Below are positions 1 to 25,423 of a stretch of 64,000 nucleotides of DNA, one piece after another (the stretch's first letter is position 1; each line of letters starts with the position of its first letter). The DNA lies in contig CAYSCM010000001.1 of the NCBI GenBank assembly GCA_964429815.1, positions 32,001 to 96,000 on the forward strand. Reading direction: 5' to 3'. The position numbers and the translations under genes were made by a program. This DNA is from an uncultured Candidatus Saccharibacteria bacterium (GTDB taxonomy: Bacteria; Patescibacteriota; Minisyncoccia; Phycocordibacterales; CAYSCM01). Below the pieces are notes generated by a model. The model saw only the letters and a list, made by a program, of their open reading frames with translations. It had not been told where the DNA came from and did no database searches.

Positions 1-268
1 TTCCCCGCGCGCGAGCGTACGTGAGTGGGACGTTGTTGGAGCCCGAACCGTTGCGGGCAATGGTTTTGAGGTTGACCATCCGTGCAAGCGCATCGACAGT
101 GAGAATCTCGTGCCCAAGAAGAAGGGCGACGACCCTCTCAGGCTCCGCAAGTGCGCCTGGATTTCTTTCGTGAAGAACTTCGAGACCCGCATCCTTGGCG
201 AGAGTCTGGAAATCCTTTTTGCCCGCATAGGTTCCGGGCGTTACGACAAGAACATTTTCTTTCTGCAT
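1..268 (-). CDS. D-isomer-specific 2-hydroxyacid dehydrogenase family protein, N-terminal part (gene runs off left edge)
   Basis: Own translation from ATG at 268 (open at the edge, so absent from the ORF track): MQKENVLVVTPGTYAGKKDF...LKTIARNGSGSNNVPL. SD AAGGAG lies 6 nt upstream. Confidence 0.5.
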   Translation of the reverse strand, partial: MQKENVLVVTPGTYAGKKDFQTLAKDAGLEVLHERNPGALAEPERVVALLLGHEILTVDALARMVNLKTIARNGSGSNNVPLTYARARG

Positions 269-346
269 GCCCTTCTCCTTCTTTCGTGGCCAACTCATGG
301 GGCCCCTCGCAGTTGTTCGGGTTTGAGACGTGCAAAATCCTGGGCC

Positions 347-385: not shown

Positions 386-419
386 TATAAAAAGTTAAGA
401 GCGGTCCGAAGACCGCTCT
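386..419 (-). terminator. rho-independent terminator after the KdsC-like gene
   Basis: 9-bp stem AGAGCGGTC/GACCGCTCT with a 4-nt loop (398-419), followed on the minus strand by TAACTTTTTAT. Confidence 0.6.
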
Positions 420-440
420 CGTAGGGCAGAAATCCGCAGG

Positions 441-1028
441 TTAGCCGTAGGGCAGCTCAAAGGGATCCTTCTTGTGGACGACTTCGACCAGGAAGTTCGC
501 GAGGTCGCGAATCGCACCCTCGCCGCCTGGCCGGATGCTCACGAAGTGGCAAATCCTCTTGATGGCCTCCTCGCCGGAGATCGGCGCTGCCGAAAAGTGC
601 ACGGCCTTGAGCATCGCGACATCGACAAGGTCGTCGCCCATGGCCCCGCATTGATTAAGTGTTCCCCCGTGTTTGGCGAGCCATTCCTTGAGCGTCTCGA
701 GCTTCTTGGGCCCGCCGCACCCTTCGAAAAGGTCGATGGGGGGCCAGGCACCGCTTTTGCAGGAAGGGAGATTGTTCAGCCGCTCTACGAGCGCGCGGAC
801 ACCGGCTGCGTTATCATCCTTCTCGTTGGTGATGACGCACAGGCGGATGCCGAGCGCCCGCATAAGAGAGAGCCCCTGGCCGTCGTAGTACGTGCGGATT
901 TTGGGTTTGAATTTCACGCCCCCGATCTCGACGCCTTCCCACACGGTGTTTGGAAAAAGGCATCCGTCGGAATCAAACGCGAAGAAAGAGACTTCGCGGG
1001 CACGTTCGAGTACTTCGGTGGACCACAT
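441..1028 (-). CDS. KdsC/YrbI-family HAD phosphatase (sugar-acid phosphate phosphatase)
   Basis: FAFDSDGCLF (HAD motif I), VITNEKD and GDDLVD motifs. SD AGGAGG precedes MWSTEV at 1028; the ORF-track start at 1082 is probably too long. Confidence 0.7.
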   Translation of the reverse strand: MWSTEVLERAREVSFFAFDSDGCLFPNTVWEGVEIGGVKFKPKIRTYYDGQGLSLMRALGIRLCVITNEKDDNAAGVRALVERLNNLPSCKSGAWPPIDLFEGCGGPKKLETLKEWLAKHGGTLNQCGAMGDDLVDVAMLKAVHFSAAPISGEEAIKRICHFVSIRPGGEGAIRDLANFLVEVVHKKDPFELPYG

Positions 1029-1160
1029 GGTCCCTCCTGTTTGTTTGTTGGCTACTGTTTGGCCGGACGCATTCTGACACATCCATTTTATTTGTCAATA
1101 TTCTTCCAGGCTGTCTGGCAATAGAAACCCGTGCTAAGCTTCGCGAGTAACAAACGCGCT

Positions 1161-1697
1161 ATGGACCACCTTAGTCCAGAACTTAGGAAGAAATTCTCGC
1201 AGGTACAGTTTCTCGCGCTCGACTTCGACGGCATTTTCACCACGGGCCACGTGTACGTGCGCCAAGATGGAGAAGAAAGCGTTAAGTGCGACCGGCGCGA
1301 CGGCTTTGGGATTGAGCTTCTGCGCCGAGCCGGAGCCGTTAAAGCTTGCATCATCTCGCGAGAGCCAAACCCCGTCGTGACGGCGCGCGCAAAAAAGCTC
1401 CAACTCCCGGTGTGGCAAGGGATCGAGCGCGGAGGAGGAAAGCTCGAGGTACTCAAAGCTCACGTGGCCGAGCTCGGCATTGCGCTTGAGAACGTCGCAT
1501 ACATGGGGGATGACCTCATCGACATTGCGGTGCTACGAAGCGTCGGACTCCCTATCAGCGTCCCGAACGCCCATCCGAAAGCGCAGAGAGAGGCCCTCTA
1601 CGTCACCAGAGCAGGCGGCGGGGACGGAGCGATCCGTGAGGTCGCCGAGCTTCTCTTGCTAAGCAAAGGTTTCGACCTCGAGGAGCTCTCCCGTTAG
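1161..1697 (+). CDS. KdsC/YrbI-family HAD phosphatase (second, divergent paralogue)
   Basis: LALDFDGIFT, IISREPN and YMGDDLIDIAVL motifs. Divergently oriented to the 441-1028 paralogue. Confidence 0.7.
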   Translation: MDHLSPELRKKFSQVQFLALDFDGIFTTGHVYVRQDGEESVKCDRRDGFGIELLRRAGAVKACIISREPNPVVTARAKKLQLPVWQGIERGGGKLEVLKAHVAELGIALENVAYMGDDLIDIAVLRSVGLPISVPNAHPKAQREALYVTRAGGGDGAIREVAELLLLSKGFDLEELSR

Positions 1698-1737
1698 CCC
1701 AGTGACCCTTTATATGCGTGGTATGGTTATCTCACCT

Positions 1738-2454
1738 ATGAAAAACGATGTCGTGCTAGTGATCCCGGCTCGCGGTGGAAGCAAGGGAGTGCCGCGGAAA
1801 AATATCCGCCCGCTCTATGGAAAGCCCTTGGTTGCCTACACCATTGAAGCGGCGCTTTCCTCAGGAGCCATTAGCCGCGTTATTGTCTCGACCGATGATC
1901 AAGAGATTGGAGCAGTGGCAGAAAAATTTGGTGCGGAGTATCTTGACCGACCGAAAGAAATTTCCGGTGATAAGGTGACACTCGAGCCGGTGATTAAACA
2001 CGCTCTTGCGGCGCTAAAAGAAAAGGAAAACTACGTACCCACCTACATTGCCTGCATTCAGCCGACTTCCCCACTCCTTAGTGGAGATGTTATACGACGT
2101 TGTGTGGAAAAACTTACAAAAGAAAATTTTGATTCATGCATTACTGCGTTTTTGCCTGACACCTACGAATGGAAGTGGAGTCCAATCGTCAAAGACGGTA
2201 AAGAAGTCGGCTTCGAACCTGAACGACCTGTTATGAAGCGCGTGGTGCGGCAAGATTTGCCCAAGGTTTACCACGAGAACGGCGCCTTTTACGTCACCAA
2301 GACCTCACTTTTTAACGAAATCGGCCATCGCTGGGGAGGCAAGATGGCGATCGTTGAGATGACGCAGTTGAATTCTATACAAGTCGATAGCGAAGACCAA
2401 TTCTGGTTTATTGAACAGATCCTCCGCAAGCGCGAAAAAGACAACAAATCGTAG
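1738..2454 (+). CDS. acylneuraminate cytidylyltransferase family (CMP-ulosonic/nonulosonic acid synthetase)
   Basis: N-terminal VLVIPARGGSKGVPRKNIRPLYGKPLVAYTI is the NeuA/KdsB-type CTP-transferase signature. Confidence 0.8.
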   Translation: MKNDVVLVIPARGGSKGVPRKNIRPLYGKPLVAYTIEAALSSGAISRVIVSTDDQEIGAVAEKFGAEYLDRPKEISGDKVTLEPVIKHALAALKEKENYVPTYIACIQPTSPLLSGDVIRRCVEKLTKENFDSCITAFLPDTYEWKWSPIVKDGKEVGFEPERPVMKRVVRQDLPKVYHENGAFYVTKTSLFNEIGHRWGGKMAIVEMTQLNSIQVDSEDQFWFIEQILRKREKDNKS

Positions 2455-2564
2455 CCGCAGTCACTAGACAAATCATCGATTTTCTGGTCTATTGACACCA
2501 GTAACAGATCGCCCTCTAAAAATGTTTAGAGGGTAGGCTCTTTTACAGTTTACAGGAGGAACCA

Positions 2565-4307
2565 ATGACTCTCGAGCTCAGGGACTTTGTCCCGAAGAAG
2601 GCCCTCGGGCTCCATCCCGCCGACGTTGTCGCTGGGATTCCCTGGGGAGGACTCTCCGGTATGCGGGTGTGTTTCATCAACATGCCACTGCGGGAGTCCG
2701 CGAAGCCAAATACCCCGCCGCAAGGTCCCGGCCTTATGGCGGCCCGTCTTATGCAGTATGGCGCTGACGTCTCGATTATCGACCTCAACGGCTACCGTAT
2801 CGATGACGAAGAAGCGCACAAGCGCGGACTCGTCAATGGCCGACACGTCTCCCACAATGAGGCGCGTCAGCTCATCGAGGCGACTTTCCACAAGTTCGGC
2901 GAACCGCACGTGATTGGCCTTTCGGGGAAAATCACGACGTTGCGCTGGCAGGAGTGGACCGCCAAGACGTGTCGTTCGCTCGCTCCAGAGGCGTTTCTCA
3001 TCTCCGGCGGTGGGCTCGCGACCGAGTTCAAAGAAGGACTCTTCAGCTGGGTGCCGCAGCTCGACGCGGTCGGCCACTCGGAAGGCGACGACATCATGGT
3101 CGCCTGCGTGAATGACGTTCGCAAGAGCGGAGGCAAGCGCGAGCGCATGACCGACTCGCCCTACTACGTGGGCGAAATCGGCGGACGCCACCGCTTCCTC
3201 TATGCGGGCGATCGACCAAGGGACCTCGATGCGCTACCGTTTGCTGCGCTCGAACTTCTCGAAGAAGACGTCTTTGGCAATCGCATACTCGACGAGTACA
3301 TCGCGACCCCCGTATGGGGACTCGCGGCGAACAACTCGTCGGCGGCACCTTTCGAGATGAGGAAGTCTCTCACGACCGTCTCCTCTCGCGGCTGTCCGTA
3401 TGCCTGCGCGTTCTGCTTCCGTGGAGCGCAAGGCGAGCAAAAGTGGGGGATCCGCTCCCCCGAGAACCTGCGAGCCGAAGCCGAGTGGATGATTCGGAAG
3501 TATGGCGTGGATTTCATCGGGTTTCCCGATGACAACTTTGCCGTAAGCGTCAAGCGCTGCCAATCGCTTCCGGAGGCCTTTGACGGGCTCTCGTTTCGTT
3601 GGGGCACGCATACGCGCCTTGACGAATGCACGCTCGATCGGATCGTGCCCATGGCGAAAGCTGGGTGCATCTATATCGGCGTCGGTGCCGAATCGGCCTC
3701 GAAACACACCCTCTACCGCATGAAAAAGGGCGGACACATCGTCCGCAAGGACGGCGTGGAGCGTCTCACGAAATGGAACGGGTTCGAATTTCCGACAACG
3801 ATGATCGAGGGGATTCGAAATTGCCGAGACGTGGGTATCCACGTGAACGCGACCTGGATCATGGGATACCCAGGGGAAACCTTGGAGGACCTCAAGACCT
3901 CGGTTGCTTTCATTTCCTGGCAACAGGAGCACTACACCAAGGGATTGGTGCCCGGCACGCCGGAGTATCAAAATGCCTCGGCGTCGGTGAATCGACGCAT
4001 GTTCACGGCGACGTGGTATCCGGGGACCACCATGGTGGAAGCCCCCGAAGCCACGAAACCGCGGGAGCTCCTCGGCGAGCACTTCGGGATTCGTTTCGTC
4101 GAGAAAGGAAGCGGGCATGCACACAAGTTCGTCCCCGTTCCCGACGACGCAATGAAAGCCTATGTGCTGGAACTCGATGACGCGACTAAGATCCTCCACG
4201 GATCCGACGGAGCGCCCATCAACTACTCGGACATGCCGGAGGAGGTCTTCCTCGAGGCCCGTAGTCACATCGATTCGGGTCAAACGGAAAAGATCCTGTC
4301 GATGTAA
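2565..4307 (+). CDS. B12-binding-domain radical SAM enzyme
   Basis: N-terminal Rossmann-like B12-binding region (VCFINMPL...PPQGPGLMAARL) and CxxxCxxC cluster motif SSRGCPYACAFC. SD AGGAGG at 2554-2559. Confidence 0.8.
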   Translation: MTLELRDFVPKKALGLHPADVVAGIPWGGLSGMRVCFINMPLRESAKPNTPPQGPGLMAARLMQYGADVSIIDLNGYRIDDEEAHKRGLVNGRHVSHNEARQLIEATFHKFGEPHVIGLSGKITTLRWQEWTAKTCRSLAPEAFLISGGGLATEFKEGLFSWVPQLDAVGHSEGDDIMVACVNDVRKSGGKRERMTDSPYYVGEIGGRHRFLYAGDRPRDLDALPFAALELLEEDVFGNRILDEYIATPVWGLAANNSSAAPFEMRKSLTTVSSRGCPYACAFCFRGAQGEQKWGIRSPENLRAEAEWMIRKYGVDFIGFPDDNFAVSVKRCQSLPEAFDGLSFRWGTHTRLDECTLDRIVPMAKAGCIYIGVGAESASKHTLYRMKKGGHIVRKDGVERLTKWNGFEFPTTMIEGIRNCRDVGIHVNATWIMGYPGETLEDLKTSVAFISWQQEHYTKGLVPGTPEYQNASASVNRRMFTATWYPGTTMVEAPEATKPRELLGEHFGIRFVEKGSGHAHKFVPVPDDAMKAYVLELDDATKILHGSDGAPINYSDMPEEVFLEARSHIDSGQTEKILSM

Positions 4308-4325
4308 TCCAGTTCTCTCACTCAG

Positions 4326-4357
4326 GGACCGCAGCAATGCGGTCCTTTTTTATTTTT
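4326..4357 (+). terminator. rho-independent terminator
   Basis: GGACCGCA gcaa TGCGGTCC followed by TTTTTTATTTTT. Confidence 0.75.
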
Positions 4358-4431: not shown

Positions 4432-5394
4432 ATGAAGATAGTACGGTGGTCCATACCCAAGCACCTCGATCTGTCGATTGAGATTTCCGGTAGAGAACAT
4501 ATGGCACAGGGAGAAAAGATGGGGTCTACGAAAGCCTTGGATGTCCTGCGCGGAATAACCTTCAGCGGCTCAGCGCCGGCGATACAGTTTGCCGATGTCG
4601 AGTCTTTATTTTCCTTTGTAGAAAAAAAATTTTTACATAAGACATTTGCGGGAGTCGGCATCGAAGTCGGCGCGGGGCCGATGATATTTAGCTCGCTCCT
4701 TACGCGCTCACGACCAAACATTCAACAGATGTATGGAATCGAACTAAGTGGCGGTATCGTAGAATTCATTGCCCCGGGAGTGGTTGATGAATTGCTGGGA
4801 CCCAAGAGTGAAAAGGTAGTCGGGGTCATCGGCAGTTTCGACGCGATGGAGCTTACAAGCGAGAGTGTCGATTTTGTTCTTGATTTTATGTCGCTTCACC
4901 ATGCGACCGACCTCGGAGAGGCGTTCGCCGAATGCTACCGGGTGCTAAAACCAGGCGGCTTCGTTGTTCTTTTTGACAAGGCTCGCCCCGATTCCTTCAC
5001 CTCTCAAGACCTGGAGGGATTGCTCAATACCGAGTACAGCGATGAAGAGAAAAAACGCTTTGGGGTGCCTTCCGGCGAACACTTTACACGCCGGATGAAC
5101 GGGGAAAAAGAATACCGGCTTAAAGATTGGTCGGCGGGGGCCTTAGAGGCCGGTTTCCCGACCCTTATGCATTGGCGACTCGCGCGCACCAACGTGCCGG
5201 GTATCTCAGGATTGTACCGACGTTTGCTTTCTCATGTGCCGCTACGCACCCAGATGGCTACTACCGCTATTGCACAAAGCGTACTGGGCAGCGGCTCAAG
5301 AGTGAAGTTTTCACAAAAAAATTTGGTGTACTCGCGGTACGTGAACCCCTTCCCCCGCGAGATCTCGCTCATGATCGCGCACAAGGCTTACTAA
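4432..5394 (+). CDS. class I SAM-dependent methyltransferase
   Basis: Motif I GIEVGAGPM and post-I VLKPGGFVVLFD. Confidence 0.65.
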   Translation: MKIVRWSIPKHLDLSIEISGREHMAQGEKMGSTKALDVLRGITFSGSAPAIQFADVESLFSFVEKKFLHKTFAGVGIEVGAGPMIFSSLLTRSRPNIQQMYGIELSGGIVEFIAPGVVDELLGPKSEKVVGVIGSFDAMELTSESVDFVLDFMSLHHATDLGEAFAECYRVLKPGGFVVLFDKARPDSFTSQDLEGLLNTEYSDEEKKRFGVPSGEHFTRRMNGEKEYRLKDWSAGALEAGFPTLMHWRLARTNVPGISGLYRRLLSHVPLRTQMATTAIAQSVLGSGSRVKFSQKNLVYSRYVNPFPREISLMIAHKAY

Positions 5395-6299
5395 CTTCTC
5401 CACGCGCTCAGGTCGCGCCCGGTAAATGCCTCGAGTTTTTGCAGTTCGGGTTCATAGCGAGCGCGGAGGGCTTCTTTGAGCTTCGGGTCGAGCGTCCCGT
5501 AGCTAGCTTCCCCGGTCCCCGCCCTCGTGTCGATGGAGCGCACTACTTTTTGGTGGAGCGGCGTTTTGCGGAAGAGGGAGAGGAGGGGCTCTCCGAATGG
5601 CAGGGCTTTGAGTAGCTTCCGCGCCCTGAGCGCGTGTCTGCGCAAGAGTGTCGCTCCGGCGGAATTTATGGTCGTGGCGAGCGAGGGCGGCACGAACGAG
5701 GCATCGACGCCGATGAAAGAAAAGATATCTCTCATATATTTTTTTGGGTCGGCACGCATATCGTCATAGAACGTAATGAGTATCTGGTCGCGGGAAAATA
5801 CCTTGAGATAATTTTCGAGGTGCTTCATATAGAAGCTCTCCTCGATAAACGACGGTTTAGTTTTAATAATTTCCTCAAGGGTTGGGAGCTCATGTGCGCC
5901 CTTTAGCTTCGTGTACATGTAGTGGGAAAAAAAGCGCTCCGTAGGGTTTCGCAATACCGCAATGATCTTCGCTTTAGGAAAATGTGTACGGAGGCGCTCC
6001 GGCACCTCGGGTGCGTGAATATAGATAGGAGTGACTTCTCCGTATACCCTCTTCCCTACACAGTGACCAAAATGTTCAAAATACCCTTCGAGAGCGCCGT
6101 TGTATTTTGTTTTCCCCACCAAATCAGTGCGCCAGAAACTTTGCGTCGTGTTAAAAAAGTTGAGCTCTTTGGGTTCGGAAACACAGACCTCGGGGTGCTC
6201 TTTGAGACATTGGTGGAGCCAGGTGGTGCCCGTCCGCTCCGGACCAATCACGAAGAAATCAATGGAAAAAGGCTTTGCTGTAGATGAAATGGTACTCAT
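5391..6299 (-). CDS. sulfotransferase family protein
   Basis: 5'-PSB-like FFVIGPERTGTTWL and 3'-PB-like LRNPTERFFSHY PAPS-binding motifs. Confidence 0.75.
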   Translation of the reverse strand: MSTISSTAKPFSIDFFVIGPERTGTTWLHQCLKEHPEVCVSEPKELNFFNTTQSFWRTDLVGKTKYNGALEGYFEHFGHCVGKRVYGEVTPIYIHAPEVPERLRTHFPKAKIIAVLRNPTERFFSHYMYTKLKGAHELPTLEEIIKTKPSFIEESFYMKHLENYLKVFSRDQILITFYDDMRADPKKYMRDIFSFIGVDASFVPPSLATTINSAGATLLRRHALRARKLLKALPFGEPLLSLFRKTPLHQKVVRSIDTRAGTGEASYGTLDPKLKEALRARYEPELQKLEAFTGRDLSAWRS

Positions 6300-6931
6300 G
6301 AGGCCGTCGGGATGGATTCCTTGTCGCGGTTTGAGAAAAACAGGTAGTCGACGATGGCGTGGAAGAAAACCGCGTGAAGCGCCTCAACGGGACCGTAGGC
6401 ACCTTTTCCTGTCTCAATGATTATCTTGTGGTGACAGAGGCTCTTCGCTTTGCCTCCGTCAAAACCAAGAACGCCTATCGCCGTGCCGCCCTTAGCGCAT
6501 ATGTACTCGATCGCGCGAAGCACATTGGGGGAATTGCCACTTGCGGAAATGACGATGAGCACATCGTCGGGACGAAAAATGTGCTTAAGCTGGTCCGCAA
6601 AAACGTTCTCGTAGCCGACATCGTTCCCGAGCGCCGTCACGGCGGCGATATTGTTGAGCGCGTGAATACGAAACGGCTTTTCTTCCGTACCACCCCCGTT
6701 CGTGGTGAGATCGGCCGCAAAGTGAGCCGCCATGGCAGCGCTCCCCCCGTTGCCGGCGATGTAGATCGTAGAGCCCCTCTCCCGGGCCTTTTGAAGCACG
6801 TCGATAATCTCCTCGACCGCTTTGGAATCTACGGCGGAAGCAAGCTCGAAGGCATGCGCAAGATACCCTTCCATAAATTCGGGTACCGATCCTTTTGTCT
6901 TTTGATAGATGGTATCGACGTGTCCTCTCAT
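6296..6931 (-). CDS. gmhA: SIS-domain sedoheptulose-7-phosphate isomerase (GmhA-like)
   Basis: IYIAGNGGSAAMAAHFAADL and VISASGNSPNVLRAIEY motifs. 4-nt overlap with the next gene. Confidence 0.7.
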   Translation of the reverse strand: MRGHVDTIYQKTKGSVPEFMEGYLAHAFELASAVDSKAVEEIIDVLQKARERGSTIYIAGNGGSAAMAAHFAADLTTNGGGTEEKPFRIHALNNIAAVTALGNDVGYENVFADQLKHIFRPDDVLIVISASGNSPNVLRAIEYICAKGGTAIGVLGFDGGKAKSLCHHKIIIETGKGAYGPVEALHAVFFHAIVDYLFFSNRDKESIPTAS

Positions 6932-7932
6932 AGCGTTGTGAGCACCCCGCGGATGAGCTTCCCTTCCTCGAGGTCTTTGAGGGCGGCTCCTATCTCGTCG
7001 AAGGAATACTCTTTCGTAAGTAACTTATCCAAGCACATGACCTTCGGGTTTTCAACGTATTCACGCGCGTAGCGAGGAATGTCGCGGTCGAGCTCGCTCT
7101 CTCCGCCCCAGGTGCCGTAAAGCTTTTTGCCCTTGATGAGCCCGAAAGGGTTGATCGATATGGTTTCCCCGGGCGCAAGGTTTCCTGCAATAACGACGGT
7201 CCCGGCGTCCTTGACCGCGCGGTAGGCGCTCTCCATGGCGCCCTTGTTTCCCGAACACTCGACGGCCACATCGAAATCCTTTCCCTGAAACTCTTCGGCA
7301 GAGATCGCTTCATCGACGCCGAGCTCCTTTTTCGCATGCGCGAGCTTCCACGGAACGACGTCGATCGCGGTAACGTGAGCACCCTTCATGACGGCTCGAA
7401 TGAGTGCACTCGCTCCGATCCCCCCGATGCCGAATATAACCACTCGTTTGCCGTTGAGGTCTCCTAGGCGGTCGATGATACCCATGCCGGTCGGCACCGC
7501 GCACCCAAGAAGTGCCGCAATCGCGGGCTCCACCCCTTTTGACACCTTGGTGACACGATTCTCTGAGACGACCGCAAGCTCGGTAAACGTCGCCACGGAG
7601 CCACCGTTTACCTTCCCTTCTTTGCTTTGATACGTCGGCACCGGAGCGGATATACCCTCTCCAAGGATCCAACTTGCAACCACATAATCTCCGCTCCTTA
7701 CTTTCTGCACGCCTTCTCCGGCCGCGACCACCTCCGCTGCGGCTTCATGTCCCAATAAGTGGGGAATATATTCCGCTCCTTTCCTGCCGCGGATTTCATT
7801 GAGTTGGCTGTGGCAAAGTCCTGTCGCTAGCACTTTAATAAGTACCTGCCCCTTTTGAAGGGAGGGAACCTCAAGCTCCTCGATGGAGAGCGGTCCACCG
7901 ACGACGCGGAGTACTGCAGCGCGCGTTTTCAT
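6928..7932 (-). CDS. zinc-type (MDR) alcohol dehydrogenase family oxidoreductase
   Basis: GLCHSQLNE, GHEAAAEVVAAGEGV and GIGGIGASAL motifs. Start MKTRAAVL at 7932 is preferred over the track start at 7998. Confidence 0.75.
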   Translation of the reverse strand: MKTRAAVLRVVGGPLSIEELEVPSLQKGQVLIKVLATGLCHSQLNEIRGRKGAEYIPHLLGHEAAAEVVAAGEGVQKVRSGDYVVASWILGEGISAPVPTYQSKEGKVNGGSVATFTELAVVSENRVTKVSKGVEPAIAALLGCAVPTGMGIIDRLGDLNGKRVVIFGIGGIGASALIRAVMKGAHVTAIDVVPWKLAHAKKELGVDEAISAEEFQGKDFDVAVECSGNKGAMESAYRAVKDAGTVVIAGNLAPGETISINPFGLIKGKKLYGTWGGESELDRDIPRYAREYVENPKVMCLDKLLTKEYSFDEIGAALKDLEEGKLIRGVLTTL

Positions 7933-7933
7933 G

Positions 7934-8587
7934 CTAGGGGATAAACCAGTAGTAGTCACCCGTGTAGCCGACCTCGGCGAAGAGTTTTTTCCAATCATCG
8001 ACAGATAGGATGGTCTTTGCAGTAAGATTCCACTTCATCATGCGATCCTTCTCTTCTTCATGGTGGTAGGCGTCGACGGTAATGAACGAGTGTTTTCCTT
8101 TCACACGCTCAATCTCTCGAAGAGCCTCTTTACACTCAGGCAGTGGTAGGTTGTGAATGGTGTTAATCGAAATCACGAGATCGTAGGATTTATCCGCAAA
8201 TTGACTAAGATTTCTTGCATCTCCAACCGATACTGCGCCCGCAATTGAGGGCATGGCATTTTCGATAGCGTAGGAGGAAACATCAATACCGCGAACCACC
8301 ATGTGGGGAAGCCAATAGAGAAAATCATTAAGCATAAATCCCTTAGCACACCCGACATCAAGTACCGAAGAGTTGTTGTTGAGTCCGTAGTAATTTATGA
8401 AATCCCGAACCACCGGTACCCACCTCCCATCATAGCGGAAGCCGCCGTAGCCCTGATCCCTGGTGCCATCAAAAAACTCCCTGCCAAACTTTCGGGCAGT
8501 AGCAACATCCTCAGGAGACTTTTGTCCTCGAGCTTCAATGTTGCGTTTGGCTTTTGGATATTTCGAAAGAAGATCGATTTCTGCCAT
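7934..8587 (-). CDS. class I SAM-dependent methyltransferase
   Basis: VLDVGCAKGFMLNDF motif I. Confidence 0.7.
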   Translation of the reverse strand: MAEIDLLSKYPKAKRNIEARGQKSPEDVATARKFGREFFDGTRDQGYGGFRYDGRWVPVVRDFINYYGLNNNSSVLDVGCAKGFMLNDFLYWLPHMVVRGIDVSSYAIENAMPSIAGAVSVGDARNLSQFADKSYDLVISINTIHNLPLPECKEALREIERVKGKHSFITVDAYHHEEEKDRMMKWNLTAKTILSVDDWKKLFAEVGYTGDYYWFIP

Positions 8588-8596
8588 AGTGGTTGG

Positions 8597-10366
8597 TTAT
8601 TTTTTTTCGGGAAGAAGCTTAACCATCATGTTGTCATTGAACTCTTTTCTTGCAAGTAGCGGCTCGGGATCCTCGAGCGGCCGACCGAACTTTACCTGCG
8701 GGATTACGCGGTGCTTCGGGTTAATCTCGATGTTACAAAACACAGGCCCCCTCATCGCGAGCACCTTCTTAACTCCCCCGCTCAACTCGCGGTTCTTCTT
8801 GATCGTAATGGTTTTGAAGCCAAAGGAGGAAGCAATTTTGGCAAAGTCTGGGAACGCAAGTCCTCCCCCTTCCGAAGACGCAAGATACGCCGAATTAAAC
8901 CACTGATCTTGAGTCTGCTGTATCATACTGTAGCCGTGGTTATTCAATACAAAAATCTTGATCGGAAGTTTGTGCTTGAGAAGGGTACTTAACTCTTGCA
9001 AATTCATTTGGAGTGAACCATCTCCGGTTACACAAATAATTGATTTCTTGTTAAGCGCCAGGCTTACCCCAATGCTCGCCGGCAAAGCCCACCCCATCGC
9101 GGTGTTGTTCCAATCGTGGTAAAGACGCTGACCTTTCTTGAAGGAAAATCCCTGCATCATCCATGCGACCGTGCAGCCGGTATCAATGACCATTACTTCG
9201 TTCTGACGCGTGTAGCGAGAGAGCTCCTCAACAAATACATACGGATTGACCCCTTTCTCTTTGTAGTACGCGGGTGGGCACATGGGATATTTTTTCTTCC
9301 ATGCGGCAATACGTCTAAGCCAGGGTGAGATGTCGTTTTTTGGCAAACGTGCGGCGTGCTTTTGAAATGCCTTCAGCAGCTCTTTTGCGTCACCGGAGAT
9401 ACGCACATCGACTTTCAGGCCAAATTTTTTAAACTTCTTAAGTTCGTAGGGGTCAATATCGATGACTATCTTTTTTGCCTCTCGCGCAAACGTGTTGGGA
9501 GGACTACCCGTCGATTTGGTATCAAGACGGCTTCCGATTGAGAGGATCATGTCAGCGTTCTGGACGGCAAAATTGGCAAACCGCGTGCCGTGAGTGCCAA
9601 AGGTGCCGATGCGAAGTGGATGACTCTCTGGCAGGAGATCCCCTGCCCCCCATGTGAGTGCCGCAGGAAAGCCGAGTGTTTCCAAAAGTGAGATGGCCTC
9701 TTTTTCGGCCCCCGCGAGGTGGATTCCCCACCCAAACACAACGACGGGGCGCTTCGCCTGCCGTAGATAGTTTATGCTTCGAGCTACATCAACCGGCGCT
9801 TTCTTCTTCTCGACGGAGGGTGTAAACGAGGGAAGCTCTCCTGGATTAATTTCTCTGCGCTGAATGTCGTCGGGAATATCGAGCACTACGGGTCCTGGCC
9901 TACCACTTCGCGCCAGAAAGATCGCTTTCTCAAGCTCGTAGCGTATGCGCCTCTCATCGGTGATGAGTATCGCGTACTTAGTGATAGGACGATACATTTC
10001 GACCGTTGCCGTTTCTTGAAAACCCACTTGCCGCACGTTGGTATGACCTTTCATCCTAAAGGTGGCTACTTGGCCGGTAATAAATATGACGGGTACCGAA
10101 TCGTAGTAGGCGGAGCACACTCCCGTGATCATGTTCGTAGCACCTGGCCCTGAGGTGGACATCGCTACACCGAGGCCACCCGTGGCCCTCGCGTACCCGT
10201 CGGCAGCCATTGCCCCCGCTTGCTCGTGTCCTGGACAGATGACCTCCATTCCCCCCGTGCGCGCCACCGAATGAATAAGGTGAAGGGATGCTCCGCCGGA
10301 GATGGCAAAGACATGCTTCACCCCTTCTTTGCGGAGAACCTGTGCTACGTAGTCGGTGAGCTTCAT
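8597..10366 (-). CDS. thiamine-diphosphate enzyme of the acetolactate-synthase large-subunit family
   Basis: 589 aa with three-domain ALS architecture: N-terminal GVKHVFAISGGASL and C-terminal GDGSLQMNLQELST ThDP motif. Confidence 0.8.
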   Translation of the reverse strand: MKLTDYVAQVLRKEGVKHVFAISGGASLHLIHSVARTGGMEVICPGHEQAGAMAADGYARATGGLGVAMSTSGPGATNMITGVCSAYYDSVPVIFITGQVATFRMKGHTNVRQVGFQETATVEMYRPITKYAILITDERRIRYELEKAIFLARSGRPGPVVLDIPDDIQRREINPGELPSFTPSVEKKKAPVDVARSINYLRQAKRPVVVFGWGIHLAGAEKEAISLLETLGFPAALTWGAGDLLPESHPLRIGTFGTHGTRFANFAVQNADMILSIGSRLDTKSTGSPPNTFAREAKKIVIDIDPYELKKFKKFGLKVDVRISGDAKELLKAFQKHAARLPKNDISPWLRRIAAWKKKYPMCPPAYYKEKGVNPYVFVEELSRYTRQNEVMVIDTGCTVAWMMQGFSFKKGQRLYHDWNNTAMGWALPASIGVSLALNKKSIICVTGDGSLQMNLQELSTLLKHKLPIKIFVLNNHGYSMIQQTQDQWFNSAYLASSEGGGLAFPDFAKIASSFGFKTITIKKNRELSGGVKKVLAMRGPVFCNIEINPKHRVIPQVKFGRPLEDPEPLLARKEFNDNMMVKLLPEKK

Positions 10367-10370
10367 GGCG

Positions 10371-11228
10371 CTACCAGGGCATCTGCTCCTTAACGCTTAT
10401 AAAGAGTGTCCCGTCACGGTAGCTCTCGGGCATATCGCCGGCTTTTGTGACAAGTCCCCACCCTATCTTCTGCGAGAACAAATTGACGCCGGAGCCTGTA
10501 AAGTGCTTGAAAATGTGCTTGGCATTCTCCGCGGTCCCAACCTCGACCAGGCCGTCACAGCTCTCCCAATCGGAAGCTTCGGTCGAGAGGAGTACTTCCT
10601 TCTCGTGCCCTTCGACGTCCATTTTGATGAGATCAGCGCCGGCGAGAATCGGCCCGAACGCTTCGAGCTCCACGGAGAACATTTCCCGATCCCCGTAGAC
10701 GTCGTGCTTTGCTCCCGAGAGGTGACTCCCCGTAGTGTTGCCGAGCACTCGGGTAAAATCTGCTGAACCCGAGCGACTTGAGACGGCGCTGTTGTGAAGG
10801 CTGGCAGAATTACATCCGTTACGCGCAAGATTTTTTTTGAGGATATCGAAATGAACCGGATCGGGCTCGTAGGAGGAAACCTTAAAACCACAACGACAAA
10901 GGATAATCGAGTGAAGTCCAATATTTGCTCCGAGGTCTACAACGCTCGTATAGCGATTGCGATTGCGCCAGTAAAAACTGAAAATAACGAGTTCATTGAG
11001 GTCAAAGAGATTCCGCGAATCGACATTACCCATGTTGTGGTATGGAAACGAGATATCTCCAAATGGCGGAAAGTGGACCGACTCTTTTGAATCAACGGGA
11101 AAGAGCCTCTCCACTTCCTTCCGAGCTTTGGCGGCACGTTCTTTGAATGGCGCGCTTGTCGGAGTATGAGAGGGTAATTCCTGCGGGAGCGTGGCAAAGA
11201 TATTCTCCAAAAAAGCCGAGGATTCCAT
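10371..11228 (-). CDS. FkbM-family methyltransferase
   Basis: VVDLGANIGLHSIIL...YEPDPVHFDILKKNL is typical of FkbM. Confidence 0.7.
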   Translation of the reverse strand: MESSAFLENIFATLPQELPSHTPTSAPFKERAAKARKEVERLFPVDSKESVHFPPFGDISFPYHNMGNVDSRNLFDLNELVIFSFYWRNRNRYTSVVDLGANIGLHSIILCRCGFKVSSYEPDPVHFDILKKNLARNGCNSASLHNSAVSSRSGSADFTRVLGNTTGSHLSGAKHDVYGDREMFSVELEAFGPILAGADLIKMDVEGHEKEVLLSTEASDWESCDGLVEVGTAENAKHIFKHFTGSGVNLFSQKIGWGLVTKAGDMPESYRDGTLFISVKEQMPW

Positions 11229-11244
11229 GACGGGAGATACCCTA

Positions 11245-12042
11245 TCAGATTTTTCGTAATTTTAATAGCTCGGGGTCACGCGCGAGCGTTTTTGAAAAGC
11301 GCGCGCTCCCCCACGCGTCATAGACAACGTGTACATCTCTTCCCCCGACTACCTTTTTTGCTGACCCAATGACCCAGTCGAGACAGTCGAGAACTCGCTC
11401 CATGGGTATAAAGTCCCCGCGCGCTAGCTTTTTCCTTGTTCGAGCATACGTATCGCCCGCGCGCCTGCCGGCGGTGATAGTCTCCTGATGGATTTTGCTG
11501 CGCACCCAACCGGGGCCTATGGTGACGAAGCGAGCATCGTTCAGCTCCGCGTCGAGGATTTCAAACATTTTTATGGTCGCTATCTTTGAAACGGTATACG
11601 CCGAGAAATTGCGTGGTGCGTTGTTCGTCCCCCCACCAGAAAATGAAATTATGCAGGGTTTTTTGGATTTCGAACGTCTGGGCAGAAGTCCGTGGATGAT
11701 GCCCATGTGAGAAAGAAAATTGAGGCGAATTGATTTTTCCCAGTCTCCGAAAGAAACGCGTTGAAAAGCTCCTATGGGCGTAAGGGTCGCCGGAGCCAGT
11801 ACAAGAACGTCCCAGGCCACCGCGAGGCTCCGCAACGTACGTAGCGCCCTATGTACAGAGGCAGGTCGAGCGACGTCACAGTGTATAAGGTGTGCGCCAA
11901 GTTTTTGCAATCCTTCTGTGGTGTGGCTGCCGGTTCTATACGTGCCGAAAACCGCCCAGCCGCGGTTTAAGTATCTTCGAGCTATGGCGGTGCCGATATC
12001 GCTTGAAATGCCGACGATGATTATTGAGCCAGTTTTTTTCAT
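11245..12042 (-). CDS. short-chain dehydrogenase/reductase (SDR)
   Basis: GISSDIGTAIARRYL NAD(P)-binding motif and YTVSK catalytic motif. Confidence 0.75.
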   Translation of the reverse strand: MKKTGSIIIVGISSDIGTAIARRYLNRGWAVFGTYRTGSHTTEGLQKLGAHLIHCDVARPASVHRALRTLRSLAVAWDVLVLAPATLTPIGAFQRVSFGDWEKSIRLNFLSHMGIIHGLLPRRSKSKKPCIISFSGGGTNNAPRNFSAYTVSKIATIKMFEILDAELNDARFVTIGPGWVRSKIHQETITAGRRAGDTYARTRKKLARGDFIPMERVLDCLDWVIGSAKKVVGGRDVHVVYDAWGSARFSKTLARDPELLKLRKI

Positions 12043-12215: not shown

Positions 12216-13496
12216 ATGCGCCAAAAATTGAGCACCCTTGTCGAAAAACTGACGGTCGCGACCGGCATAAACTTTTCCTACCTCCTGCGCGGAGGGTCCT
12301 GGGCGTTTTCCGAGCAGGTGGTTACCAACGCCATCTCCCTCCTCCAGGCCATCGCGTTTGCCAACCTTATCTCTCCGCAGACGTATGGAGTGTTTAGTGT
12401 CGTGCAATCGTGGATAGGCATTCTCGTTACGTTCGCGCTCGGGAGCCTTCCAAACGCGCTTATAAAAAGCGTTGCGGAAGGCAACGACGGGGAGCTCAAA
12501 CGCGGATTTCTCCTCAAGCTTAAGTATGCTCCCCTTGCCTCTCTGCTCGGGCTCGGATTCTCCTTCTACTATCTATTTATAGGGAACAATACGACCCTCG
12601 CTTACTCGTTTCTCATTGCTTCGTTTTGCATGCCGCTTTACGTAGCGCTTCCGCAGGTCACGTTCTTCCTGTTCGCCAAGGGAGCATTTCTCGATAAGTT
12701 CATCGTGCAAGTGAGCGTTAGTCTTGCTTCGCTGGCAGGAATGACTATTTCAATGCTCTATTTCGGTTCTGTTCCATACCTGATGCTCGCCTACTTCATT
12801 CCACCGATCATCGTGAACGGCATCTTTTTTTGGCGCACGCTGCGCACCAAGGTTCATAATGCCAAGACCGGCGCGAACACGGAGCGGTTTGCGCTCCACC
12901 TTACGGGCATGAGTCTTCTTGGTTCGATAACCAAAAACATCGACCAACTCCTCATGTTCCACTTCAGCGGCGCAGTTCAGCTCGCGGTATATAAATTTGC
13001 CTTGATTCCCATACGAAAGCTGGAGACCTTTTTCCAGATCATCCTCGATCTGCTCCTCCCGCGATTTGCCAAGAGAGAGTACCGCGAGATTTACCAGGGG
13101 TTCGACAGAAAGCTCCTCCTTTCAGGCGCTTTTTCGTTGACGGTCGTGGCTGTTTATTTTTTCAGCATCCCCTACCTCTACAAGCTCTTTTTCCCGAAAT
13201 ACACCGACGCGGTGATATACTCGCGACTCCTTTCCCTGCTGTTTTTGTTTGGCCCTCTCTCATACGTTCAGCAGCTTTGGCTTGCGAAGGCGGAAACTAA
13301 ACGTCTCTATTTTTTAAAAATTCTCGGTGATTCCACCCGGATCTCACTTCATGTCGCGCTTATTCCCGTATTTGGGATCGCCGGTGCAGTGGGAAGCCGG
13401 ATGGTCGCATCCTCCTTTGTCAGCACCGCGGCATTCATTTTATTTTTGAAGGATAGGAGACGGTACGGTAAAGGCTCGAAGCGCCAATCGCAGTAA
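12216..13496 (+). CDS. Wzx-like polysaccharide/oligosaccharide flippase (MOP superfamily)
   Basis: 426 aa, polytopic and hydrophobic throughout, in a glycan-locus context. Confidence 0.65.
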   Translation: MRQKLSTLVEKLTVATGINFSYLLRGGSWAFSEQVVTNAISLLQAIAFANLISPQTYGVFSVVQSWIGILVTFALGSLPNALIKSVAEGNDGELKRGFLLKLKYAPLASLLGLGFSFYYLFIGNNTTLAYSFLIASFCMPLYVALPQVTFFLFAKGAFLDKFIVQVSVSLASLAGMTISMLYFGSVPYLMLAYFIPPIIVNGIFFWRTLRTKVHNAKTGANTERFALHLTGMSLLGSITKNIDQLLMFHFSGAVQLAVYKFALIPIRKLETFFQIILDLLLPRFAKREYREIYQGFDRKLLLSGAFSLTVVAVYFFSIPYLYKLFFPKYTDAVIYSRLLSLLFLFGPLSYVQQLWLAKAETKRLYFLKILGDSTRISLHVALIPVFGIAGAVGSRMVASSFVSTAAFILFLKDRRRYGKGSKRQSQ

Positions 13497-14733: not shown

Positions 14734-15231
14734 TTAGCGTCGGTAGGTTGAATTTTTTTTGATTGCCGTAATGATATCGCGTGTGCTTAATTTTTTGTCT
14801 TTCGTAAAGGTAATCCTGCAACCCACCTTCTGAGCGCTTTGTATTTCCTCTGCGAAATCTTTATTCGGCGGGATACCGCGGTAATCGGGACCGCGCACAT
14901 ACAGGTCCGGCTTGAGAGCACGTATGAATCTTGATCCATTGTTAGCATCATTAATGAACACGAAATCAACCGGGCGAAGCTGCGAGAGCATGTAGGCCCG
15001 CATATGCTCGGTGAACACCGGGCGGCCGATACCTTTTTGTCTTCGTACCTGTTTATCACTTGCGATCGCAACCACGAGCACATCACAGAGGCGCTTTGCG
15101 GATTCAAAATGCATCGCATGCCCGGGGTGGAGCAGATCATAGTTGCCGTTACAAAAACCGATGATCTTCCCCTCCTTTTTACGTCGAGCAAGTATGGGAC
15201 GAAGCTGCTGAAAGGAGATGATGCGTGCCAT
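14734..15231 (-). CDS. cytidylyltransferase-fold nucleotidyltransferase (HldC/RfaE domain II or TagD-like)
   Basis: GFCNGNYDLLHPGHAMHFESAK carries the HxGH motif. Confidence 0.7.
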   Translation of the reverse strand: MARIISFQQLRPILARRKKEGKIIGFCNGNYDLLHPGHAMHFESAKRLCDVLVVAIASDKQVRRQKGIGRPVFTEHMRAYMLSQLRPVDFVFINDANNGSRFIRALKPDLYVRGPDYRGIPPNKDFAEEIQSAQKVGCRITFTKDKKLSTRDIITAIKKNSTYRR

Positions 15232-15233
15232 AG

Positions 15234-16238: not shown

Positions 16239-16249
16239 GTGAGCAAAGT

Positions 16250-18269: not shown

Positions 18270-18270
18270 G

Positions 18271-19248: not shown

Positions 19249-19250
19249 AG

Positions 19251-20309: not shown

Positions 20310-20353
20310 GGTACCTGATGGGTGGGAAAAGAAAAGCCGCGAAAAGCTTCCTC

Positions 20354-21724
20354 CTAGGAAATAAAACTGAGCACAGCGGAAGCGATGTGAGAGGCCGACA
20401 TTCCGTCGAATTTCCAGCAGTAGCGATCTTTGAAAACTTTGCGCCGGTCGCTGTGAATCTCGGGGTGCGCAAGGTAGATGTTGATCCATTTCGCAAGTTC
20501 TCCCTTGGAGCCCACGAGAGCGGTCGAGCCGATGGAGAGCCAGGAAACTTGATTTTCCTCCAATCTCCAGCGCCTCACGAGGCTGCGCAGGAACGGTACC
20601 TTTGTTTCCCACCCGTCGAAATTGATGGTGATGAGCGGTTTATCGAAAATAGAAGAATCGATGATGATGGAAGAGATGGTATTGATGACCAGCGAGCTCC
20701 AGTAGAGTGAATCGTAAATGTGTTGAAAGAAGCTCATGTCGAGTTCCCCCTCTCGCTTGTCACGCTCAAGGTCATTGAGCTTGGCGGGGCCTGGAATATC
20801 AATAATAAAGTGCTCGTCTGGTGTGAATTTGGAGAGGTCGACGGGGAGGAACGGGTGGAGCCGAACCAAAATTTGCAAATCGTCGGGGATTTTCTTCTCC
20901 GCAAAGAGGTCTTTGAGGATCTGGCAGGTCTGCCAGTCGGTGTCGATGAAAAAATGTCCGGCGGGCGCGAAGAGGACGAGGCGTTTCTTCGGGTCAGCGC
21001 CGATTTTCTTAAAAAATTCTTCACGCGGGGTCGGCTGCATGGTGAGGTACTTTTCAAACTGCGGGACACCTGATAGCACGATCGTGGTCTCTTTGATGTG
21101 GTGGTAGCGCACCATATCCTCTTTCATGACCTCGTTATGGACGATGAGCCGATCCGGCACGAAGCGAGCATAGCTACGGGACGTCGTATTGTCCCACGAA
21201 CGCACCATCGCGACCGTTCTCACCCCGCGTGCTTTGGCATTTTTGAGAAGGAAGAGGTCCGAGTGATTAAAAAGGTCGGTCGCGAACACGACGCTGGGCC
21301 GATATGTCTCAACATATCGATTGAACGTGTCCTGATTATTGAGCCTATAGTCGAGAAAACGCAGGAATTTCTTGACTGGCGTGATCGGAGCGAACAGGGC
21401 CGTGAAGAGAAGCGACGTATAGTACTTCGGCCAGTTACCCGTCTTCGTCCGCGCCTCGAGTTTATGGATCCACATGACGTTCGTGTCGAGGAGCCACTCG
21501 GCCAGTCTTTGGAACAGCCGGTTGCGGAAACTGGTTACGTTCTTTCCAAGTTCCACCCCCTCGACAATGACGCCCGGGTAGCGTATTTTAAAATATTCCT
21601 CCTGGGGTTTTGCAACAAAAAGGACGACCCGCGCCTCCTTGGTGAGAAGATCGAGCACTCCCGTGTTGAGGATATTTTTTGTTATAAACGGATGAAAATC
21701 CGTAATGAAAACCGTCGGCTTCAT
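20354..21724 (-). CDS. hypothetical protein, probable GT-B-fold transferase of unknown specificity
   Basis: 456-aa intact ORF translationally coupled in the operon. Two-Rossmann-like layout is suggested by VVLFVAKP... and RLVLFAPAGH...LVRLHP. No family confidently recognised. Confidence 0.4.
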   Translation of the reverse strand: MKPTVFITDFHPFITKNILNTGVLDLLTKEARVVLFVAKPQEEYFKIRYPGVIVEGVELGKNVTSFRNRLFQRLAEWLLDTNVMWIHKLEARTKTGNWPKYYTSLLFTALFAPITPVKKFLRFLDYRLNNQDTFNRYVETYRPSVVFATDLFNHSDLFLLKNAKARGVRTVAMVRSWDNTTSRSYARFVPDRLIVHNEVMKEDMVRYHHIKETTIVLSGVPQFEKYLTMQPTPREEFFKKIGADPKKRLVLFAPAGHFFIDTDWQTCQILKDLFAEKKIPDDLQILVRLHPFLPVDLSKFTPDEHFIIDIPGPAKLNDLERDKREGELDMSFFQHIYDSLYWSSLVINTISSIIIDSSIFDKPLITINFDGWETKVPFLRSLVRRWRLEENQVSWLSIGSTALVGSKGELAKWINIYLAHPEIHSDRRKVFKDRYCWKFDGMSASHIASAVLSFIS

Positions 21725-24669: not shown

Positions 24670-24713
24670 ACGCTAGCAGATAAGCCAATAAATACGAACT
24701 GGATGATGGATAG

Positions 24714-24742
24714 TTGACTATTGCAGATAATCGTGCTACAAT
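24714..24742 (+). promoter_or_regulatory. near-consensus sigma70 promoter with extended -10
   Basis: TTGACT (24714-24719), 17-nt spacer, TGcTACAAT (24734-24742). Lies 32 nt upstream of the Nudix ATG. Confidence 0.55.
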
Positions 24743-24774
24743 TTTGCCCGGTCTACAAAGCCGAGGAGGCACAC

Positions 24775-25362: not shown

Positions 25363-25391
25363 TAGACGTCCGCTCTCGTTCTTAACACTTT

Positions 25392-25422: not shown

Positions 25423-25423
25423 C

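Follow-up and report, generated by a model that had tools for sequence, protein, structure and literature searches.

The DNA examined here is a 64,000-nucleotide stretch (the window) of contig CAYSCM010000001.1 from an uncultured Candidatus Saccharibacteria bacterium, a member of the candidate phyla radiation (CPR; Patescibacteria). Its segment 441-4307 holds two divergently transcribed genes for KdsC-like HAD phosphatases, a gene for a cytidylyltransferase of the NeuA/KdsB type, and a gene for a 580-amino-acid (aa) radical S-adenosylmethionine (SAM) enzyme of class-B architecture; a methyltransferase gene and a sulfotransferase gene follow. With somewhat better than even confidence, we read this segment as the central part of a cassette for a cytidine monophosphate (CMP)-activated ulosonic acid, a sialic-acid-like sugar, in which the radical SAM enzyme would carry out an optional tailoring step, C-methylation being the favored reaction. 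That the family of this enzyme is linked to CMP-ulosonic-acid glycosylation we consider very likely.

Open reading frame (ORF) listing and domain scans reproduced the coordinates and divergent orientation of the phosphatase genes given in a preliminary description of the sequence, and likewise its cytidylyltransferase, its methyltransferase and sulfotransferase, and its radical SAM gene with a Shine-Dalgarno sequence (AGGAGG, 6 nt 5' of the ATG at 2565) and terminator-like hairpin of its own (Table 1). Both phosphatases (195 and 178 aa) are capless and carry the HAD catalytic motifs DxD and GDxxxD. The plus-strand enzyme falls within the KdsC/YrbI subfamily (TIGR01670); this is also the top NCBIfam match of the minus-strand enzyme, which at 53.4 bits against a cut-off of 106.95 stays below curated membership. 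Neither passes the equivalog models for KdsC (NF007019; 128.3 bits for the plus-strand and 44 for the minus-strand enzyme against a cut-off of 208) or for Kdn-9-phosphate phosphatase (NF058599; 90 and 50 bits against 180). The minus-strand gene has an AGGAGG upstream of its ATG at 1028, and its product is 41-46% identical to the phosphatases that occupy the "KdsC" position elsewhere. To call the two phosphatases duplicated, as had been done, overstates their kinship: they are 32% identical to each other, and each is 44-55% identical to nearer relatives elsewhere. A recent duplication is ruled out by this low identity and by the closer orthologues in other genomes, and the two are old paralogues. 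The cytidylyltransferase stays below the equivalog cut-offs of both PseF (TIGR03584, 150.9 bits against 205.7) and KdsB (TIGR00466, 49.8 bits against 155.2) and by these scores is nearer to the nonulosonic-acid enzymes than to KdsB; it is 61-71% identical to the cytidylyltransferases of four related loci (L003, L007, L058, and L071), where 57-65 bp separate their genes from that of the radical SAM enzyme.

The preliminary description had seen no ulosonic-acid synthase, and we too found no NeuB or KdsA domain among window ORFs of at least 150 aa, in a Pfam scan that took in each plausible gene between positions 441 and 57,586. This absence is an edge effect, however, because the window ends before the NeuB gene. 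An exact-sequence look-up of the radical SAM protein located the same DNA in a public assembly, on a sequence (L001) that is identical to the window at 14307 of 14307 overlapping positions and reaches 7.4 kb further left. Inspection of that flank for a neuB- or kdsA-like gene, the check put forward at the time, brought to light a NeuB-family synthase 3.45 kb left of position 1. Leftward from the edge, L001 carries the rest of the 2-hydroxyacid dehydrogenase cut by the edge, another dehydrogenase of this type, two AAA_33 kinases, NeuB, a cupin, a 342-aa protein, and a second PF02348 cytidylyltransferase, again PseF-like. The synthase scores 250 bits against NeuB_NnaB (cut-off 399.65) and 207 against PseI (cut-off 340.25), making it a NeuB-family member that belongs to no curated equivalog, and a SAF domain is absent from it and from its 120 best homologues. 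In the closest relatives (L045, L051, L052, and L058), NeuB is 65-70% identical, and extra KdsC copies, an AAA_33 kinase, and a cupin recur.

To place the radical SAM gene in a wider genomic context, one genome per species was scanned, which yielded 78 loci, 76 of them holding a member of its family; ORFs were called and clustered, cluster representatives were annotated, and genes within 10 kb of the radical SAM gene were counted as neighbors. Besides many CPR lineages, they represent Roseibium (among its members the cultured R. aggregatum and R. litorale as well as TrichSKD4), Polyangiaceae, Planctomycetota, Opitutia, Nitrospirae, Acidobacteriota, and Desulfobulbia. Of the 76 loci, 48 have a PF02348 cytidylyltransferase as a neighbor, separated from the radical SAM gene by a median of 93 bp and on the same strand for 42 of 49 genes; NeuB is one in 43 loci, a KdsC-type phosphatase in 37, a Wzx flippase in 30, and a short-chain dehydrogenase/reductase (SDR) in 28, at a median distance of about 1 kb. 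Less frequent are a TagF-like PF04464 protein, which follows the cytidylyltransferase (23/76), a xylose-isomerase-like TIM barrel (22/76), a methyltransferase like that at 4432-5394 (17/76; median gap, 50 bp), and a GmhA-like SIS protein (12/76). When the count is restricted to the 44 loci that extend 8 kb or more to each side, the cytidylyltransferase is found in 31 (35 if a related type is included), NeuB in 29, and KdsC in 23. Immediately downstream of the radical SAM gene, 28 loci have the cytidylyltransferase, and another 10 have it behind a methyltransferase; a KdsC-type phosphatase lies directly upstream in 12. The typical order is Wzx (+), NeuB (-), KdsC (-), SDR (-), TIM barrel (-), radical SAM (+), an optional methyltransferase (-), cytidylyltransferase (+), and TagF-like transferase (-). 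In the Roseibium locus (R. aggregatum, R. litorale), NeuB, KdsC, a methyltransferase, in brackets a TylF methyltransferase, the radical SAM gene, and the cytidylyltransferase (CTP3) are listed in this order. Although the surrounding genes vary, the pairing of the radical SAM gene with PF02348 is kept across at least eight phyla. One further cluster (c34) adjoins NeuB in five loci; its polysialyltransferase match is below threshold (19.4 against 23.3 bits) and was not used.

We also examined eight contexts of the NeuB subfamily, selected solely for long contigs. A radical SAM gene was nearby in three, two of these being genomes already in the set, and was not found within 10 kb in the other five, all of which have NeuB and a cytidylyltransferase. 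Four of the five have, in addition, a TagF-like gene and either an SDR/TIM-barrel or an SIS gene (the SIS genes being in cassettes L086 to L088), and one has a hydroxylase of the Fe/2-oxoglutarate type and a GFO_IDH oxidoreductase at the corresponding position. In a neighbor-joining tree, the NeuB proteins of loci that lack the radical SAM gene fall among those of loci that have it. Because the core cassette also occurs without this gene, its product is best seen as optional, and these observations, small as the sample of five such loci is, argue for a tailoring step that may have been gained and lost within one pathway and would act after condensation. An obligatory core step, or the making of the NeuB substrate, is disfavored by the same small set of loci and by the mixing of both kinds in the NeuB tree.

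Gene fusions point in the same direction. The nearest relatives outside the family are 28% identical over their full length, rank directly under the family in a profile search, and have the motifs INxPxR, IGxSGxxTT, SGGGLA, SRGCPxxCxxC, and LDDAT in common with it. In one fused relative (P0407, 1096 aa), a B12-domain radical SAM protein continues into a C-terminal TagF-like/GT-B domain; its cassette further encodes a PF02348 enzyme, a protein in which NeuB is joined to AP_endonuc_2, methyltransferases, and another radical SAM protein with a B12 domain. In another (P0412, 638 aa), a Maf N-terminal domain precedes the B12-domain radical SAM part, and the gene sits inside a flagellar island, with Maf glycosyltransferase genes on one side and, on the other, a set of the legionaminic/pseudaminic type (dehydratase, PF02348, NeuB plus SAF, Epimerase_2, PglD-like, and DegT) that is flanked by flagellin, FliD, FliB, and FliS genes. 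The gene joining NeuB to a xylose-isomerase-like TIM barrel is located at 5186-7066 of L090, that of the TagF-like fusion at 8001-11291 of L090, and that of the Maf fusion at 8001-9917 of L089. The fusions tie this class-B branch to the nonulosonic-acid transferase step, and the TIM barrel to NeuB.

The 580-aa protein itself belongs to the radical SAM superfamily, with PF04055 above its cut-off and a cluster motif, C277-x3-C281-x2-C284 (CxxxCxxC), that is invariant in 12 homologues. A search of 5.8 billion proteins gave 823 matches, the best 120 of which are 54-74% identical to it and include none with an informative name; a profile search of 1.84 billion cluster representatives gave about 20 full-length clusters (at 50% identity) above ~450 bits and then a sharp fall in score. 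The protein defines a separate, compact, highly conserved family that has yet to be named. Its NCBIfam scores against class-B models are 72 bits for BchE, 69 for Sden_1168, 68 each for ApyD and PhpK, and 65 for HpnJ, with cut-offs of 481-750 (750 for ApyD and 575-600 for PhpK and Sden_1168). Over the whole series of curated class-B subfamilies (BchE, PhpK, Sden_1168, HpnJ, ApyD, KedN5, BzaD, MJ_0865, and others; cut-offs 251-775), no score exceeded 72 bits, and the matches covered mostly the core only. Clustering with BchE or with lipid methylases, which the preliminary description had named as a contrary outcome, was therefore not seen, and membership in either group is ruled out; the other outcome it had named, a genome devoid of any condensing synthase, is countered by NeuB on L001.

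The same description had labeled the protein B12-binding. The Pfam domain for this function, PF02310, stays sub-threshold in the window protein, but the label is backed by its homologues, many of which carry PF02310, by a profile match, and by fold comparison. Searched alone, the profile of the N-terminal domain matched only the cobalamin-dependent TokK (E = 1.6e-4), and not AprD4. There is no DxHxxG; the family does conserve IGLSGKITTL followed by 29 residues and GGG, which we take to resemble the "SxL...GG" cobalamin motif of MetH and which, with the domain around it, is nearly invariant. The AlphaFold model (pLDDT, 81.6; pTM, 0.84) retrieved with Foldseek only enzymes of class-B architecture, namely, TsrM, TokK, OxsB, MgmA, AprD4, and CysS (E of ~1e-11 to 1e-8; 13-17% identity). 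An additional conserved domain of ~130 aa forms the C terminus; it spans residues 450-580 and carries the conserved LDDAT motif. Two family members from other metagenomes, P0362 (913 aa) and P0369 (886 aa), are each interrupted near residue 280 by an intein with Intein_splicing and LAGLIDADG homing endonuclease domains, within or beside the CxxxCxxC iron-sulfur motif.

From the gene identities, synteny, fusions, and class-B architecture observed, we infer a substrate, an order of steps, cobalamin binding, and methylation as follows. The SAF-less NeuB-type synthase would condense a sugar phosphate with phosphoenolpyruvate (PEP) to an acid phosphate, one or both KdsC-type phosphatases would strip the terminal phosphate to give the free acid, the PseF/NeuA-like enzyme would convert this to the CMP-acid, and the TagF/TagB-like protein encoded at 20354-21724 would move the activated acid onto a glycan. 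The radical SAM step most likely falls at or near the CMP-sugar or transfer stage. There, the [4Fe-4S] cluster would cleave SAM to a 5'-deoxyadenosyl radical, which would abstract hydrogen from an unactivated carbon of the acid, and methylcobalamin held in the N-terminal Rossmann domain would, in the preferred outcome, donate a methyl group to yield a C-methylated ulosonic acid, whose chain might be lengthened by one carbon. The preliminary proposal of a C-methylated or otherwise modified Kdo-, Kdn-, or nonulosonate-type acid agrees with all of these findings, NeuB, synteny, and fusions among them; for C-methylation as such, argued by analogy with Fom3 and its CMP-conjugated substrate, we would put the chances slightly short of even.

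Several observations weigh against this proposal. Because the scores against curated class-B models lie so far under their cut-offs, function cannot be transferred by homology; PF02310 reaches 16.7 bits against a cut-off of 32.1 in the window protein; and CPR bacteria are generally unable to make cobalamin and would need to scavenge it. NeuB is missing within 10 kb in 15 of the 44 loci with full flanks. In the window, the TagF-like gene lies 16 kb from the module, and a TagD-like cytidylyltransferase (14734-15231) could provide its product with CDP-glycerol instead. The TagF-like protein is nevertheless 61% identical to the one that follows the cytidylyltransferase in 23 related loci, and the block 20354-27907 (TagF-like, DegT, methyltransferase, GT4, dehydratase-like, and UDPG/GDP-Man-dehydrogenase-like genes) keeps the gene order of L003, L007, and L071, where these genes come directly downstream of those for the radical SAM enzyme and the cytidylyltransferase. 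In this genome, the cassette is thus split by an insertion of ~16 kb of other sugar genes (4.4-20.3 kb).

The main rival, which we regard as unlikely, keeps the pathway and changes the chemistry: the enzyme would be a cobalamin-free radical 1,2-diol dehydratase like AprD4, converting a vicinal diol to a keto-deoxy intermediate that a neighboring reductase (the SDR in most cassettes; here the 2-hydroxyacid dehydrogenases, a zinc-dependent alcohol dehydrogenase, or an SDR) would turn into an extra-deoxy ulosonic acid. AprD4 itself acts on a sugar, an SDR gene is found close by in the 28 loci counted above, and a dehydratase of this kind would suit the generally poor cofactor biosynthesis of CPR bacteria. 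The NCBIfam model for AprD4 (NF033070), however, gives only 31.6 bits against a cut-off of 500, over the core only, and the N-terminal domain sides with TokK and conserves the MetH-like motif; SDR genes also occur in cassettes lacking the radical SAM gene and are therefore not its dedicated partner. A little less probable again is some other radical reaction in the same pathway, such as epimerization, skeleton rearrangement or ring contraction in the style of OxsB or HpnJ, oxidation, or C-C coupling, on the acid, the acid phosphate, or a glycan-bound residue. OxsB is among the Foldseek matches, and HpnJ and BchE score as high as the methylases (~65-72 bits); moreover, AAA_33 kinases recur and KdsC lies directly upstream in the 12 loci mentioned, an arrangement reminiscent of OxsB, which reportedly acts on phosphorylated substrates with a phosphohydrolase partner. 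Most characterized class-B enzymes are methyltransferases, however, and nothing points specifically to any single one of these alternatives.

It is also conceivable, although quite improbable in our view, that the enzyme is unrelated to the ulosonic acid and modifies another sugar, a lipid carrier, or a protein of the glycan locus, its position reflecting a general tendency of glycan genes to cluster. Many sugar pathways are mixed in the 40-kb mosaic of the window, a sizable minority of full-flank loci have no NeuB nearby, as noted, and more distant relatives in Desulfobulbia adjoin GDP-mannose-dehydratase-like genes; against it stand the pairing with PF02348, kept at a median of 93 bp throughout at least eight phyla, and the relatives in which a TagF-like transferase (in a cassette with NeuB and PF02348) or Maf (in a flagellar nonulosonic-acid island) forms part of the protein. 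Phosphonate tailoring of the Fom3/PhpK type, in which a CMP-phosphonate is made and then C- or P-methylated, has the Fom1/Fom3 precedent and the Sden_1168/PhpK P-methyltransferase matches (~68 bits) in its favor. These matches are far under their cut-offs, the cytidylyltransferase is PseF/NeuA-like and is accompanied by NeuB and KdsC, and the PEP-mutase motif EDKx5NS is absent from all frames of the window and from all ORFs of the 78 related loci and L001, so that this reading is effectively refuted and retains next to no probability.

Table 1. Features of the 441-4307 module and of the surrounding glycan locus (window positions; the last row lies left of the window)
Feature	Position	Strand	Evidence
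D-isomer 2-hydroxyacid dehydrogenase, N-terminal part	1..298	-	Translation; full gene is L001 6718-7734, 338 aa, PF00389/PF02826
Terminator-like hairpin 3' of first phosphatase gene	397..420	-	10-bp stem, 6 GC pairs
C0-type HAD phosphatase, KdsC-like but divergent, 195 aa	441..1028	-	PF08282, 25.4 bits; motifs DSDG, GDDLVD
Divergent intergenic region between both phosphatase genes	1029..1160	.	Promoter-like matches at 1098..1071 (-) and 1074..1102 (+); consensus matches only
KdsC/YrbI-subfamily phosphatase, predicted to act on sugar-acid phosphate, 178 aa	1161..1697	+	TIGR01670, 114.3 bits (cut-off 106.95); motifs DFDG, GDDLID
Predicted CMP-ulosonic-acid synthetase, PseF/NeuA-like, 238 aa	1738..2454	+	PF02348, 103.3 bits (gathering score 22.6)
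Radical SAM enzyme, class-B architecture, uncharacterized family, 580 aa	2565..4307	+	PF04055, 58.9 bits (cut-off 29.5)
Intrinsic-terminator-like hairpin 3' of radical SAM gene	4324..4347	+	10-bp stem, 6 GC pairs, tail TTTTATTTTT (T-run)
Class I SAM methyltransferase	4432..5394	+	PF08241, 50.7 bits
Sulfotransferase	5391..6299	-	Domain scan
GmhA-like SIS sugar-phosphate isomerase, frequent cassette accessory	6296..6931	-	PF13580, 59.5 bits; gmhA, 94.8 bits (cut-off 209)
Wzx-type flippase	12216..13496	+	PF01943, 61.7 bits; homologues in 30 related loci
TagF/TagB-like (Glyphos_transf) transferase, candidate for CMP-acid transfer	20354..21724	-	PF04464, 50.4 bits
NeuB-family synthase (on L001)	-4448..-3450		PF03102, 244.6 bits

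SecD homologues assign the organism to Paceibacteria/Parcubacteria, within CPR/Patescibacteria. The window from position 1 to ~41,700 is one large surface-glycan locus of this bacterium, comprising a Wzx flippase, many GT4 glycosyltransferases, dehydratases, aminotransferases, methyltransferases, two sulfotransferases, thiamine diphosphate (ThDP) enzymes, and the TagF-like transferase. The gene that runs off its left edge had been called a 2-hydroxyacid dehydrogenase, an assignment borne out by its translation, by the gene call on the full contig, and by domain matches; against NCBIfam, it scores ~146-149 bits for phosphoglycerate dehydrogenase (PGDH) and glyoxylate reductase, under the cut-offs. 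No homologue of it occurs in the 78 related loci, and it is peculiar to the cassette variant of this genome. Further left, L001 1454-2482 (+) and 170-628 (-) had no match in Pfam or NCBIfam.

A second conserved sugar module occupies 6928-12042 and 14734-18269, and most of its genes recur together in L085 (14391-21008). It includes a zinc-dependent alcohol dehydrogenase, methyltransferases (one of the FkbM type), an acetolactate-synthase-like ThDP enzyme (8597-10366), an SDR, a TagD/HldC-like nucleotidyltransferase, an epimerase, and E1 alpha and beta ThDP subunits (16250-18269); by resemblance, this may be a YerE-type pathway to a branched-chain (two-carbon-branched) sugar. The two sulfotransferase genes lie at 5391-6299 (-) and 29070-29924 (-), and in a related CPR locus (L087), a sulfotransferase and a fused ATP-sulfurylase/APS-kinase (adenosine phosphosulfate kinase) are encoded (1816-2688 and 17765-19414) beside the same NeuB cassette, which suggests that some CPR bacteria may bear sulfated surface glycans. 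A 407-aa ORF beside Wzx could, as a guess, encode a Wzy-type polymerase. Some of the mechanically called ORFs overlap (19251-20612 and 20354-21724 by 259 nt; 16250-17401 and 17310-18269 by 92 nt); since the PfkB domain begins at residue 140 of a 453-aa ORF, the real start of that gene is probably further downstream. ORFs 13509-14732 (-), 25483-25977 (+), and 47818-48282 (-) had no Pfam match.

Directly after the glycan locus, 41719-44305 (-) encodes a lamin-tail-domain protein and a VirD4/TrwB-like coupling ATPase, both typical of CPR genomes. The 16S rRNA gene (50519-51980, -) is unlinked from the 23S-5S pair (60916-61021 and 61464-64000, both -), from which ~9 kb of protein-coding genes separate it, among them SecD, SecF, an epimerase, and an initiating sugar transferase. 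Two tRNA genes (48309-48392 and 48544-48616) lie 1.9 kb downstream of the 16S gene and not in a spacer; between them, they encode tRNA-Ile(GAT) and tRNA-Leu(CAG).

Nonulosonic acids (sialic, legionaminic, and pseudaminic acids and Kdn) are displayed on the surfaces and flagella of bacteria and govern how hosts and phages recognize them. To our knowledge, their known tailoring is limited to N-acyl or O-linked chemistry. Full-text searches of the literature found no paper that joins radical SAM enzymes to ulosonic-acid or flagellin-glycosylation pathways, and NCBIfam has no curated family model covering the 580-aa protein; a class-B radical SAM enzyme is thus placed in a new pathway context. A conserved class-B family wired into CMP-ulosonic-acid cassettes in at least eight phyla predicts a new way of modifying sugars as well as substrates of a new class for cobalamin-type radical SAM enzymes, and it indicates that CPR bacteria, despite their reduced genomes, spend on elaborate surface-glycan chemistry. 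Since the family occurs in the cultured Roseibium aggregatum and R. litorale, the prediction is directly testable.

[quoted passage not shown] A radical SAM enzyme that methylates the chain is a candidate explanation for such acids, and the family with its Maf- and TagF-fused relatives could conceivably be the missing chain C-methylases of CMP-nonulosonic acids, possibly acting on the terminal carbon to give C10-backbone acids like those of M. gryphiswaldense; we consider this a long shot. If it were true, chain C-methylation would be a new and widespread way of diversifying sialic-acid-like sugars on CPR surfaces and flagella.

Among characterized systems, the transfer step has a possible counterpart in Tannerella forsythia, where Tanf_01245 and TFUB4_00887 are transferases that carry a TagB/GT-B domain and use derivatives of CMP-Pse or of CMP-Leg (PMC5420450). 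The PF04464 protein of the cassette is likened to them here by description, and in the window, the CDP-glycerol route is possible as well. For the core pathway, the closest parallel is that to CMP-Kdn in Bacteroides thetaiotaomicron, which is reported to consist of a Kdn-9-phosphate synthase, a KdsC-family Kdn-9-phosphate phosphatase, and a CMP-Kdn synthetase. The present cassette likewise combines a NeuB-type synthase, a C0-type HAD phosphatase, and a PF02348 enzyme, and its match to the Kdn-9-phosphate phosphatase model is the 90 bits (below 180) given above; it differs in that its NeuB has no SAF domain and in its additional SDR, TIM-barrel or SIS isomerase, methyltransferases, and radical SAM enzyme.

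The radical SAM protein can be compared with the solved cobalamin-dependent methylases TokK, TsrM, and CysS, to which it is 13-17% identical with TM-scores of 0.4-0.5 and whose substrates (carbapenem, tryptophan, and cystobactamid) are unrelated. From AprD4, the 1,2-diol dehydratase of apramycin biosynthesis (PDB 6FD2), it differs by its extra ~130-aa C-terminal domain and its TokK-like N terminus. Class-B radical C-methylation of unactivated sugar carbons, the analogy drawn in the preliminary description, is reportedly the work of GenK, GenD1, and related aminoglycoside sugar C-methylases; these enzymes, likened here by description, act on pseudo-oligosaccharides and not on nucleotide-activated keto-acids. 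As for activation before methylation, Fom3 methylates an sp3 carbon only on a CMP-conjugated substrate (PMC8158854). The substrate of Fom1 is a phosphonate, whereas here there is no PEP mutase, the cytidylyltransferase is of the PF02348 type, and the similarity is at the superfamily level only (PhpK-type score, ~68 bits). In both Fom1/Fom3 and the cassette described here, however, a cytidylyltransferase gene is paired with the gene for a B12-domain radical SAM enzyme of the same architecture.

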